A stretch of 64,000 nt of DNA from Acidobacteriota bacterium (GTDB lineage: Bacteria > Acidobacteriota > UBA6911): positions 3,296,001-3,360,000 of the forward strand of contig OY761556.1 in NCBI GenBank assembly GCA_963664705.1, read 5' to 3'. This document shows, one piece after another, positions 27,335 to 50,112 of this stretch. Under the pieces are notes generated by a model that worked only from the letters and a program-made list of their open reading frames with translations, made no database searches and was not told the origin of the DNA. Position numbers and translations under genes: made by a program. Numbering within the stretch: position 1 is the first letter of the stretch; each line of letters starts with the position of its first letter.

Positions 27335-29314
27335 ATGAGATCAAATGGGAGACTAGCGGTGGATGAAACCGATTTGCCGGACAGAACGGAATCTCATGAT
27401 ATCGGCGGCCTGAATCCCGCGCCTGATTCCATAAGGACGGCACTGTCCCGCGCCACCGATTGCCTTGTTTCCCTGCAGCAACAGTCGGGATTCTGGTGCG
27501 GAGAACTGGAAGGCGATTCCATTCTGCAGAGTGAATATATTCTGCTGAAATTTATCATCGAACAGGAAAACGATCCCCGCCTGCCCAAAATAGCCAATTA
27601 CCTTCGGACCCAGCAACGCGCTTCGGACGGAGCCTGGATTCAGTACCCGGGCGGCAAACCCGACTTGAGCGCAACCGTTAAAGCCTATTTTGCCCTTAAA
27701 CTGATGGGTGACAGCATCGATGCGCCGCACATGAAAAAAGCCCGCGAGCTTATCCTGTCCCTGGGCGGGGCCGAGCGATGCAACACCTACTCAAAATTCT
27801 ATCTCGCGGCCCTCGGCCAAATGCATTACGACTCCATCCCTGTCATTCCCCCGGAACTGGTCCTCCTCCCCAAGTGGTTCTATTTTCATCTCGATAAAGT
27901 GTCCGCCTGGTCCCGCACCATGATCATGCCCCTGGCGGTCGTCTCGAGTTACCGGCCCGTCCGCCAGTTGCCGGCTCCGCGCAGCATCATGGAGCTGTAT
28001 GTCAGCCATGATTATGTTCACCGGCCGTTTATTGATTTCGACAAGGAGCTGTTGAGCTGGAAAAATCTATTCCTGGCCATCGACAAGGGACTCAAGCTGC
28101 TGGAAAAAACGAATTTGAAGCCGCTGCGCCGCAATGCCCTGCAGCGAATTGAGGAGTGGATCCTGAAGCGGGCCGACGGCCAACGATCCGACGGTCTCGG
28201 CGCCATCTTCCCCCCCATGGTCTATATTATTATCGCCCTGCGCTGTCTCGGGTACTCCATGGACGATCCGCGCGTCAAAGAAGCCGCCGCACAATTGGAT
28301 CGGCTGATGATCGAGGAATCCAACAACATTCGACTGCAACCCTGTTTCTCCCCCATCTGGGATACCGGCATTGCCACCTATGCCCTTTGCGAAGCGGGCT
28401 TCAACCAGGAAAGCCAGGCAATGCAACAGGCGGTGCGCTGGCTGGTCAGCAAAGAGTGCAAAGATTTCGGGGATTGGAAAGCAAACATCCAGCAACCAGT
28501 CGAGCCGTCCGGCTGGTATTTCGAATTCAACAACTCCTATTACCCCGATGTGGATGATACCGCCATGGTGACCATGGCTTTGCTGCGTTCCGGCTGCAAC
28601 AACGGCAAAGCTCCCGTGGAGCGCGGCATTCGATGGATTCTCGCAATGCAAAACGAAGATGGCGGATGGGCCGCATTCGATAGAACCATCAATCGCCCAA
28701 TCCTCGAGTATGTGCCGTTTGCCGATCATAACGCGATCCAGGATCCGTCGTGCCCGGACATCACCGGGCGCACGCTCGAGTGCCTGGGGCACTTCGGCTG
28801 CGGTCCCGATCATCCCGCGGTTCAGCGCGCGCTCCGGTTCCTCGAGTTCGAACAGGAACCCGAAGGTTGCTGGTTCGGACGCTGGGGCGTCAATTATCTT
28901 TACGGAACATGGCAAGTCGCATGCGGGCTGAAAACTGCGGGAGTGGATATGACCCAGCCCTGGATTCTGCGAGCCGGCGAATGGCTTCGAAGCGTTCAGA
29001 AAGAGGATGGATCTTTCGGCGAGTCGGCGGACAGTTACGAATATCCATCGCAGAAAGGGAAAGGACCTTCCACGCCCTCCCAAACCGCGTGGGGGACGAT
29101 GGCGCTAATGGCCATTTACGGTCCCAATGATCCCGGAGTGCTGAAGGGAATTCAGTACCTTGTAGCATCTCAAAACAGCTCCGGCAGTTGGGACGAACCC
29201 TGGTTTACCGGCACTGGTTTCCCTCGAGTGTTTTATCTGAGATATCATCTCTATCGAATATATTTTCCTATCATGTGCCTCGGGCGCTGGATGAGATTGC
29301 TCAGTAGTCAGTAG
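27335..29314 (+). CDS. shc: Squalene-hopene cyclase
   Basis: Catalytic PDVDDTA (DxDD), QW repeats (QNEDGGW, QEPEGCW), FTGTGFPRVFYLRY. Confidence 0.96.
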   Translation: MRSNGRLAVDETDLPDRTESHDIGGLNPAPDSIRTALSRATDCLVSLQQQSGFWCGELEGDSILQSEYILLKFIIEQENDPRLPKIANYLRTQQRASDGAWIQYPGGKPDLSATVKAYFALKLMGDSIDAPHMKKARELILSLGGAERCNTYSKFYLAALGQMHYDSIPVIPPELVLLPKWFYFHLDKVSAWSRTMIMPLAVVSSYRPVRQLPAPRSIMELYVSHDYVHRPFIDFDKELLSWKNLFLAIDKGLKLLEKTNLKPLRRNALQRIEEWILKRADGQRSDGLGAIFPPMVYIIIALRCLGYSMDDPRVKEAAAQLDRLMIEESNNIRLQPCFSPIWDTGIATYALCEAGFNQESQAMQQAVRWLVSKECKDFGDWKANIQQPVEPSGWYFEFNNSYYPDVDDTAMVTMALLRSGCNNGKAPVERGIRWILAMQNEDGGWAAFDRTINRPILEYVPFADHNAIQDPSCPDITGRTLECLGHFGCGPDHPAVQRALRFLEFEQEPEGCWFGRWGVNYLYGTWQVACGLKTAGVDMTQPWILRAGEWLRSVQKEDGSFGESADSYEYPSQKGKGPSTPSQTAWGTMALMAIYGPNDPGVLKGIQYLVASQNSSGSWDEPWFTGTGFPRVFYLRYHLYRIYFPIMCLGRWMRLLSSQ

Positions 29315-29332
29315 TCAGTAGTCAGTAGTCAG
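29301..29332 (+). repeat. Tandem heptamer array (TCAGTAG)x4.5
   Basis: Perfect repeats; contain the shc stop (29312-29314) and the four-helix-bundle stop (29322-29324). Confidence 0.95.
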
Positions 29333-29708
29333 GATGTCCATCGATACCGCGGAGGCGTAATTCTTTGATTAATCCGTTAATCAACCTTCCTGTTTCGGAT
29401 GTCAGCGACAACAGTTCCTGTGCTTGATTTGGCGAAAGATATCCAAGTTCCCGAGAGATTAAAATTTGGGTTTCGGCCTCCGCAAGTGAGCCCAGAGCAA
29501 TTCGCAGATGAGGCAAAAATTCCCCCTTTGATTTTCGGCCTTGACCCTCTGCAATATTGGAGGGAACTGAAACGCATGCGCGTCGAAGCTGCGATACAAT
29601 CCCGTACATTTCCTCCGGCGGAAAGAGACGCGTTTCCCGATAAATCATTTTCACCAGCTTGAGAGCCTTCTTCCATGCAAGTAGGTCCTGGTAATCTCTA
29701 GCATTCAT
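29322..29708 (-). CDS. Four helix bundle protein (23S rRNA IVP / bAvd-like family)
   Basis: AGGAGG RBS; YQDL.AWKK, FP.EE.YG..SQLRRA.VSVPSNIAEG.GR, IA.GSL.E.ETQ. Confidence 0.93.
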   Translation of the reverse strand: MNARDYQDLLAWKKALKLVKMIYRETRLFPPEEMYGIVSQLRRACVSVPSNIAEGQGRKSKGEFLPHLRIALGSLAEAETQILISRELGYLSPNQAQELLSLTSETGRLINGLIKELRLRGIDGHPDY

Positions 29709-29765
29709 GGGATTCCTCCTACCCGTAATAAATGAACGCTCAGCTTTTTGATCCAAAATATTTCG

Positions 29766-29807
29766 ATACTGATTACTGATTACTGACTACTGGCTACTGA
29801 TTACTGG
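29766..29807 (-). repeat. Tandem heptamer array (YTACTGR)x6, reverse complement of the 29301 array
   Basis: ATACTGA TTACTGA TTACTGA CTACTGG CTACTGA TTACTGG. Confidence 0.9.
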
Positions 29808-29873
29808 CTTGTGACGTCGACGCGGTTGTGCGAAAATGCGACTCTTTCAACTATGATAGGAGCGGAATCTGCA

Positions 29874-30926
29874 ATGAGCACAAAAATCCCGGTGGGGGTC
29901 CTTGGTGCAACCGGCGCCGTTGGACAAAAATTCATCAAACTGCTGGAAAACCATCCCTGGTTTGAGGTCACAGAAGTCGCGGCCTCCGAAAGAACTTCAG
30001 GAAAACTTTACGGAGATGCCGTCTCCTGGAAGCAGGTCACACCCGTTCCAGACAACGTCCGCAAGCTTGAAGTCCGTCCCTGCACACCGGATCTGAAGTG
30101 CCGCATTGTGTTTTCAGGACTGGATGCATCGGTTGCCGGATCTATTGAGGATGACTTTGCCAAAGCCGGCTATGTGGTTTTAAGCAATTCAAAAAACCAC
30201 CGACTGGATGAAGATGTCCCGCTTGTCATTCCGGAAGTGAATCATGATCACCTTGGACTGATTCCTATTCAGCGCCAGAATCGGAAAGCAAAAGGATATA
30301 TCGTAACCAATGCAAACTGCACCACGATGTTCCTTGCGATGGCACTGGGTCCCATCCACAAAGCATTCAACATTGAAAAAGTCTTCATGGTTTCCATGCA
30401 GGCTGTTTCCGGAGCCGGCTACCCGGGTGTTCCCTCGCTGGATATCCTGGGCAATGTCATCCCCTTCATCGGCGGCGAAGAGGAAAAAGTAGAAATCGAG
30501 ACGAGAAAGATTCTGGGAACCTTTAATGGCAAGACCATCGATCTTGCGGACTTCCCTGTCAGCGCCCAGTGCAATCGCGTAGCGGTGGAAGACGGACACA
30601 CCGAATCGGTTTCAGTCAAACTGGCAAAGAAAACTTCCGTGCAGGAAATCGCGGAACTATTGAAAAATTACTCCGGCGTGCCGCAGCAACTGCGGCTCCC
30701 CAGCGCGCCCCAGGAACCATTTATTGTGATGGAAGCCCAAGACCGGCCGCAGCCCCGATTCGACGTGAACCGGGCCAATGGCATGGCTACGCTCGTGGGA
30801 CGCATCCGACCGTGTTCGATTCTCGACTATAAATTCACTTTAATGGGCCATAACACAGTTCGCGGCGCTGCCGGCGCATCTATCCTCAATGCGGAACTGC
30901 TCAAAGCTCAGGGAATGCTGGAGTAG
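29874..30926 (+). CDS. asd: Aspartate-semialdehyde dehydrogenase (archaeal/fungal-type clade)
   Basis: GATGAVGQ, NANCTT, QAVSGAGYPG, CNRV.V.DGH, HNTVRGAAG. Confidence 0.95.
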   Translation: MSTKIPVGVLGATGAVGQKFIKLLENHPWFEVTEVAASERTSGKLYGDAVSWKQVTPVPDNVRKLEVRPCTPDLKCRIVFSGLDASVAGSIEDDFAKAGYVVLSNSKNHRLDEDVPLVIPEVNHDHLGLIPIQRQNRKAKGYIVTNANCTTMFLAMALGPIHKAFNIEKVFMVSMQAVSGAGYPGVPSLDILGNVIPFIGGEEEKVEIETRKILGTFNGKTIDLADFPVSAQCNRVAVEDGHTESVSVKLAKKTSVQEIAELLKNYSGVPQQLRLPSAPQEPFIVMEAQDRPQPRFDVNRANGMATLVGRIRPCSILDYKFTLMGHNTVRGAAGASILNAELLKAQGMLE

Positions 30927-49950: not shown

Positions 49951-49990
49951 AATTCCAGATTCCGGATTTCAGATTCCAGACTAAGACCGG
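49951..49990. repeat. 7-mer tandem array (GATTYCR)x4-5
   Basis: AATTCCA GATTCCG GATTTCA GATTCCA GAC. Confidence 0.65.
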
Positions 49991-50112
49991 AGAATAAGGG
50001 CGCTGCATACCTTCGCTTTATTGATTTTTAAAGCCGGCAGCAAGCTGCGTCACTCCACGGTTCCCACTCGGGCACGCCTTTTTGCAACTTTTGCAAATCG
50101 TCAATCGTCAAT

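Follow-up and report, generated by a model that had tools for sequence, protein, structure and literature searches.

A four-helix-bundle gene between inverted heptamer arrays, and a genome-wide repeat family whose sequence follows the gene

We analyzed a gene for a small four-helix-bundle (FHB) protein that lies between two inverted arrays of tandem heptamers in a 64,000-nt stretch of an Acidobacteriota genome (G000; hereafter, the window). The arms flanking this gene are part of a repeat family that extends across the genome and takes its sequence according to the FHB gene, a relation that the preliminary description of the locus overlooked. The FHB protein likely sets which repeat a genome carries. 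Tentatively, and at somewhat under an even chance, we suggest that a predicted pentameric ring of this protein binds its own heptamer and biases the copying of arrays. The FHB system is real and widespread; the protein is a member of PF05635, and, judged by the features that define those systems, it is not a 23S rRNA intervening sequence (IVS), a RAYT, or a diversity-generating retroelement (DGR). The features concerned, in window positions, are listed below.

27335..29314, plus strand: shc, squalene-hopene cyclase (TIGR01507), with its final codons within the left arm
29301..29332, plus strand: left arm, (TCAGTAG)4.6 (TRF, 100% matches)
29322..29708, minus strand: FHB gene, ATG at 29708, 128 aa (PF05635/TIGR02436)
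29715..29720, minus strand: AGGAGG ribosome-binding site, 6 nt ahead of the FHB ATG (from the sequence; GGAG/GGAGG in four congeners too)
29725..29755, minus strand: putative FHB promoter between the arms, TGGATCAA ... ATTNNTA block, conserved in 5/5 aligned antisense congeners
29767..29809, minus strand: right arm, about six units reading CAGTARY on the minus strand, inverted relative to the left arm (sequence and TRF)
29809..29848, plus strand: promoter-like block TTGTG ... TGCGAAAATGC, probably the promoter of the asd/aspartokinase operon, kept in filled and empty congeners
29877..30926, plus strand: asd, aspartate-semialdehyde dehydrogenase (TIGR00978)
49952..49980, plus strand: gene-less heptamer array of another family, CAGATTY, which matches the arms flanking the FHB gene located at G000:361.6 kb
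50096..50112, minus strand: short gene-less array of the CGATTGA family

The preliminary description had placed an FHB gene between inverted heptamer arrays in a shc/asd setting, and TRF, profile matches, and shuffles bore this out. The right-arm TRF entry spans 29767-29806 (TACTGAY ×5.7, 87%), the arms are identical at 29 of 33 positions in an ungapped alignment, and all seven window matches to a 19-nt array pattern fall within the two arms (three on the plus strand, four on the minus strand; mean of 100 shuffles, 0.00). The array ends had been thought able to pair, and in fold prediction the arms form a long RNA stem (z = −4.4) that none of 100 shuffles equaled. It was also correct that the left array supplies two stop codons, the shc TAG (29312-29314, plus strand) and, on the opposite strand, the FHB TGA (29322-29324, minus strand). 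The idea that three copies stop all frames by design did not survive: five of 17 common units are stop-free on both strands and only three stop on both. We rejected a universal stop-codon design; the stops in all frames are incidental. The block at 29809..29848 is host sequence bounding the cassette, and the right arm stops where it starts. The cassette sits between protein genes, not inside an rRNA gene, and Rfam gave no match in 28500-30500. A scan for the sigma-70 consensus and terminators found no match, including in the conserved block upstream of the FHB gene. As described earlier, no transposase, integrase, or RT is nearby: these families were absent from the 46 + 4 window ORFs scanned, while five called ORFs at 23.5-34 kb lay outside the scan and have translations that look metabolic. 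The sole PF00078 hit of the genome is 2.4 Mb from the FHB locus. Raw reads, which scarcely cover the stretch, contain no inversion joint. “Skips” of 453-458 nt in reads are best read as gene-less doublets elsewhere (one matches, on the opposite strand, a doublet located at G000:3808089; G000 lacks the spacer of the other).

The FHB protein scored 120 bits against TIGR02436 (cut-off, 24) and 122 bits against PF05635 (cut-off, 33.8), and it fell below the cut-offs of Avd models (26.3 vs. 80 bits; 28.5 vs. 40 bits). Its AF2 model has four helices (pLDDT 92) and aligned with Xcc0516 (2GSC) at Z = 20.7 and an rmsd of 0.9 Å over 113 residues, followed by BT_0352 (Z = 15.8), DGR Avd (14.3-14.7), and the first unrelated bundle (12.5). 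The 2GSC structure comprises five chains, and by analogy the 128-aa protein is predicted to be a pentamer, forming a five-subunit ring. Among the invariant residues (Q40, S47, N51, and E77), we recognized no nuclease or transposase motif, and the only profile hits were of the PF05635/Avd type. The gene is under purifying selection in the congener pair G014/G002 (dN, 0.025; dS, 0.37). Hypermutation between the arms was considered and rejected, as FHB dS did not exceed shc dS in two close pairs. By eye, spacers looked more diverged.

Heptamer arrays are abundant throughout G000, which has 260 arrays of period 7; the other periods between 5 and 13 number 1-47 each. The genome encodes five PF05635 genes, four of them flanked by inverted arms and the fifth lying in a dense field of mixed arrays, with the units CAGTAGT (the shc-asd gene), CAGGAGT, CAGATTC, CGAATKA, and GGACGTT. 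Six unit families matching the arms of these genes account for 252 of the 260 arrays, the CGATTGA family being one base off CGAATGA. Copy number peaks at 4-5 units (detection fails below about 3), most arrays are unpaired, and 181 of the 252 are mostly intergenic by crude ORF calls. An array begins within 40 nt of a co-directional stop codon in 93 of the 252 cases (mirror control, 43; random, 2.9%). Same-family pairs less than 700 bp apart have a fixed polarity (38 vs. 8, with a four-copy tandem inflating both counts), and the spacers of doublets are unrelated between sites. Clustering near the matching gene, as in local spreading, appeared in one of six families only, and in an array-dense region of G000 other genes too lie between arms. 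The CAGATTY family is the largest (80 arrays), yet its FHB gene appears frameshifted, which counts against a protein-driven reading.

Across congeners, the presence of a unit tracked that of the matching gene. We counted six unit patterns in 30 congeners and regarded eight or more pattern matches as abundant (matches overlap within arrays). Where a matching FHB gene was present, 26 of 28 genome-family cases had the unit in abundance; where it was absent, 12 of 152 did. A Fisher p overstates the significance of this comparison because the congeners are kin and the families were drawn from arms. For all six patterns, 6 of 7 FHB-free genomes had 0 matches. YAGTCGK had 212, 143, 117, and 74 matches in four genomes with such shc arms and 0 in G000; conversely, CAGTAGB had 16 in G000 and 0 in those four. 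CAGATTY was abundant in exactly five genomes, those with a CAGATTY-armed FHB gene. There were exceptions of both kinds. A matching gene was present with few arrays in two cases (G002 and G039), and targeted searches found no matching gene for TCAGC-type arrays in G002, G017, G014, G032, and G007 or for CGAWTKA-type arrays in G002, G018, G037, and G007; CGARATT arrays also occurred without such a gene in G014 (60 matches) and G037. Gene loss is visible once, in G037, where decayed arms surround a 90-bp spacer, and we assumed that the other gene-less array cases are relics or assembly gaps.

Comparison of sister genomes revealed replacement of one unit by another. Between G006 and G038 (shc dS, 0.117), the flank of one site is approximately 90-93% identical and the FHB genes approximately 65-70%. 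At this site, G038 carries TAGGGAT arms nested inside older TAGYGGT arms, TAGYGGT being the older state as seen in G001. A genome-wide switch in G038 was predicted before the two units were counted: in G038, TAGGGAT has 33 matches, spread over about 14 sites, against 0 in G006, G001, G018, and G039, and TAGYGGT has 137 in G006, 28 in G001, and 10 in G038. Such displacement of a majority unit by that of a single newcomer is the work of something acting in trans. G017 and G037 (approximately 95% identical) likewise differ in FHB content, and at four of seven common array sites CAGTCGG in G017 is wholly or partly TCAGCTR in G037, with spacers partly kept; a fifth site has GGTTACA versus GATTCCA, and no precise filled/empty doublet pair occurred among the seven. 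One spacer compared in 26 genomes, bordered by genes that are, from their motifs, probably dinB and dnaE, has arms in 16 of them, representing about nine unit types, and lacks them in all five FHB-free genomes that were examined. At orthologous sites, gene-less arrays change their unit in place. The older units tend to be the outer ones, with the newer at the arm strand's 3′ end (10 vs. 2 in G037; 4 vs. 0 in G038), in counts that are small, with a G037 pattern that also catches opposite-strand blocks and three G037 loci chosen for their old units. The arrays are therefore rewritten where they stand. Inversion, loss, and exchange of the gene between arms were all observed among congeners.

The mobile cassette proposed in the preliminary description was upheld only in part. 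A unit of gene plus arms is indeed gained or lost at gene ends: at shc, the FHB gene is present in 6 of the 21 congeners with an shc ortholog, antisense in G000, G014, G002, G017, and G032 and flipped to sense in G010. On the other side, its clade is mostly single-copy per genome, no target duplication was seen, and single ancestry of the six genes was not rejected (AU p = 0.33), because of which old residence with repeated loss fits this site. The host tree (810 nt of shc) is poorly resolved and requires at least four presence changes, with gain and loss indistinguishable. An allele swap in G000 itself was considered and set aside, two trees placing the gene differently with the same AU p. 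This allele has one copy in G000, and divergence at the empty shc sites is too great for a junction to be delimited. The unit at shc varies among genomes, and both arms of one cassette agree in most. In G037, the arms are kept and the gene is replaced by a REP-like insert between them; G035 has a gene-less doublet of a different unit, and most remaining genomes have neither gene nor arms. In G002, two contigs are common to 74 nt of the shc tail and split at the first arm base, their cassettes being merely 53% identical over 57 aa; most simply, these are two alleles in one bin. FHB orientation varies among congeners at three sites; G017 and G037 differ by a clean inversion with breakpoints within the arms.

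The preliminary description had also anticipated inverted heptamer flanks in other family members, and we found them in the genus, in GTDB relatives, and in two further clades. In the genus survey (73 loci from 80 hits, after merging two pairs and omitting five hits that were weak or partial), 39 of 48 near-complete copies had an array, 31 on both sides and 27 inverted; the nine without an array include most of one long-branch clade and count against our best reading. The GTDB survey covered the 80 nearest relatives (13 named phyla; 52 Acidobacteriota): all 77 usable loci had an array, 59 on both sides and 51 inverted, with a downstream arm in 71 and an upstream arm in 65, and none of 69 control windows had both arms. 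The corresponding counts (array, both sides, inverted) for relatives of the two further clades were 47, 35, and 27 of 68 and 18, 12, and 8 of 21. When brought into phase, the 72 distinct units give a loose C-R-G-T-K-K-N consensus (score, 206; highest shuffled score, 166). Protein clade co-varies with the heptamer, as had been suspected: among 3960 non-syntenic pairs from 90 loci with matched arms (a shared unit having at most one mismatch), unit sharing was 77% at ≥70% protein identity (n = 56), then 28%, 14%, and ≤2% below 50% (rho = −0.51; lowest among 300 permutations, −0.14). Protein similarity is a predictor of the unit across unrelated loci, and such covariation is expected as well if gene and arms merely travel together. 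The cassette does reach new sites, as seen from its insertion in methyltransferase-like long ORFs at 4 of 80 genomic loci and on four viral contigs, which carry three distinct alleles; the frame stays open there, and the through-frame of the cassette is open in 11 of 80 relatives anyway.

In the ring-binding reading that we favor, each subunit of the ring would take up one heptamer of a single-stranded nucleic acid, in keeping with the peak of arrays at 4-5 units. Host enzymes may then copy the arrays by slippage and by switching templates from one bound array to another, so that matching arrays would grow and overwrite older ones. Arm-to-arm recombination would flip and swap the gene, and arrays would decay slowly once the matching gene was lost. 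The system would thus be a mostly resident partner gene with a repeat population, RAYT/REP-like by analogy and transposase-free. A bolder version, which we consider doubtful but worth stating, makes the Avd-like ring, which lacks a polymerase of its own, a repeat writer: each allele would specify a 7-base unit and, with a host polymerase, extend or overwrite gene-end arrays across the chromosome.

The arrays could instead be binding sites that benefit the host, with the ring as a TRAP- or Hfq-like regulator of mRNA ends or chromosome structure, and with selection keeping matching arrays at gene boundaries. The gene's own ribosome-binding site, the conserved block upstream, the purifying selection, and the excess of arrays near co-directional stops would suit this explanation, as would the transcription of Xanthomonas heptamers at gene ends reported in the available text of PMC4692102. 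Against it, whole genomes lack both gene and arrays, the unit at a single site varies freely among congeners, and a new unit arose at 14 or more G038 sites within an shc dS of 0.117, which is hard by point mutation alone. Arm mismatches, moreover, have no G.U strand bias (108 vs. 101, 89 vs. 96, and 15 vs. 12), for which reason selection on the arms as RNA hairpins was rejected, and we judge the binding-site explanation unlikely. Host-driven arrays homogenized by ectopic conversion, with FHB a passenger between arms and its protein irrelevant to the unit, would explain arrays without matching genes and the other genes found between arms in G000, and nested old-outer, new-inner arms are the expected trace of arm crossovers. 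It is nevertheless quite improbable, given that the unit of one incoming cassette displaced the majority unit, that each of the five units found side by side in G000 is kept with a protein clade of its own, and that the gene-unit link holds across phyla and unrelated sites.

Two further explanations place the specificity or the movement elsewhere. An Avd-like ring could hold its own transcript, whose 3′ arm complements the growing strand, while a host polymerase or RT, working like telomerase, lengthens arrays at their 3′ ends, the specificity residing in the RNA. The structural kinship to Avd (Z = 14.3), the 3′ position of new units on the arm strand in G037 and G038, and the slight excess of downstream arms agree with this. 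No RT is linked, though, and the polarity arises equally if outer units are fixed by gene overlap. Dependence of the arrays on RT was discarded, as the two do not co-occur (RT is present in array-free G009, G013, and G016 and was not found in array-rich G018 and G012), and RNA-templated writing appears very improbable. The alternative of a strict mobile cassette, an approximately 500-bp unit that excises and inserts, with gene-less doublets as footprints or as miniature copies hopping like REPINs, draws on the patchy presence at shc, the occurrence of one clade at several sites, the insertions in methyltransferase genes, and the fixed doublet polarity. We give it little credence, since doublet spacers are unrelated between G000 sites, sisters keep a spacer partly at one site while the arms change, sites are common across the genus, no catalytic motif was recognized, and most arrays are unpaired.

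The gene-repeat link joins two orphans, namely a widespread, function-less family with solved structures and the surplus of 7-base tandem repeats seen in many bacterial genomes. The sister-genome swap makes this link directly testable, as each allele predicts one unit. Should array growth be directed by the protein, a 128-aa non-enzyme would offer a new way of editing genomes in a sequence-specific manner, and the arrays would join REPINs as a new kind of repeat population within genomes. If the repeat-writer reading is true, it would give the origin of long-unexplained heptamer repeats of many bacteria and a means by which small genes are inverted, exchanged, and inserted without a transposase.

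Cyanobacterial STRR and long SSRs are reportedly the subject of work by Mazel in 1990 and Mrazek in 2007. We found no literature linking the PF05635 family to genome-wide heptamer arrays, in a search that covered subscription journals little. The same protein family occurs in the S23p IVS of 23S rRNA in Coxiella and Leptospira, in which, according to the accessible text of PMC4990558, 2-3 strain-variable tandem heptamers (GACAGAT) lie upstream of an ORF set in the loop of terminal inverted repeats. That text regards the heptamers as a local feature and the ORF as being in decay, and it makes no mention of genome-wide arrays, whereas the FHB cassette lies between protein genes in either orientation, with its own ribosome-binding site and under purifying selection. 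As far as the available part of the preprint describes them (bioRxiv 10.1101/2021.07.10.451892), RAYTs are single-copy resident genes flanked by their cognate repeat, with several gene-repeat groups per genome, and REPINs are inverted doublets with variable spacers whose repeats decay without the RAYT. FHB is similarly a low-copy resident gene flanked by a repeat spread genome-wide; in contrast to the RAYT-REPIN system so described, it has no HUH/Y1 transposase, its repeats are tandem 7-mers and not palindromic REPs, its arrays turn over in place, and the gene flips, swaps, and occurs on viral contigs. Avd (4DWL) has the same fold (Z = 14.3; 1.6 Å over 106 residues), and the solved relatives are pentameric. 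The FHB protein differs from Avd in sequence (13% identity, below model cut-offs), in the absence of RT among the window ORFs scanned, and in a synonymous divergence that is not raised. Avd binds a defined RNA site of approximately 27 nt, according to the accessible text of PMC6182149 (see also, for Avd of DGRs, the available part of PMC10053308). Heptamers of Xanthomonas and Nostoc are described in the available text of PMC4692102 as having period 7, about four units, positions near stop codons, and a strand rule, with 70 convergent pairs in X. campestris; they are explained there as G-quadruplex candidates, with no partner gene or mobile element in that text. Unlike these, most units of the FHB system are unable to form quadruplexes, and X. 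campestris encodes the FHB protein of structure 2GSC.

In the Acidobacteriota genome under study (G000), arrays of the GGACGTT heptamer family were concentrated around the matching four-helix-bundle (FHB) gene at 1.31–1.48 Mb of contig C1, and 17 of the 23 sites of this family lay within 150 kb of that gene, against 1.0 expected. Such clustering near the family's own FHB gene was absent from the other array families of G000. Arms of the GGACGTT type also enclose two further genes in the 1.31–1.48 Mb region, which we take to be one FHA-like and one ORF6N-like gene. CAGATTY is the largest array family of G000, despite an apparent frameshift in its FHB gene (C1:361642–361990). In the window, two gene-less arrays of separate families face each other across 115 bp (49952–50112):

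49952..49980, + strand, CAGATTY-family array
50096..50112, − strand, CGATTGA-family array

FHB cassettes were also nested in long ORFs, at four loci in viral contigs (L343–L346) and four genomic loci (L112, L133, L157, L177). In all eight, the cassette lay on the host-ORF strand in a shifted frame, and the host frame ran uninterrupted across the whole cassette. The hosts in L343, L345, and L346 were BREX-1 PglX (NCBIfam); by motif, those at the genomic loci look like PglX-type methyltransferases, in which the cassette position differs from locus to locus.

Repeats with 8–10-nt units flank all three GxxExxY (PF13366) genes of G000, inverted in at least two:

C1:4472310, GxxExxY gene
C1:2163578, GxxExxY gene
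C1:3800606, GxxExxY gene

Among G000 arrays, only those of period 7 outnumber those of periods 8 and 9, and these genes with their repeats are possibly a system parallel to FHB genes and heptamers.

REP-like palindromic elements at L102, L104, L105, L368, and L382 sit at the very gene ends where other congeners have heptamer arms. Short tandem duplications (110–290 bp), each spanning one arm and the adjoining gene end, were also observed:

G000, C1:3262349–3263227, arm-containing tandem duplication
L193:13956–14501, arm-containing tandem duplication
L037, arm-containing tandem duplication

The congener G037 carries 22 period-6 arrays (ATCGGN-type; L394–L433) across 800 kb, frequently adjoining TCAGC arrays; G000 has only seven period-6 arrays.
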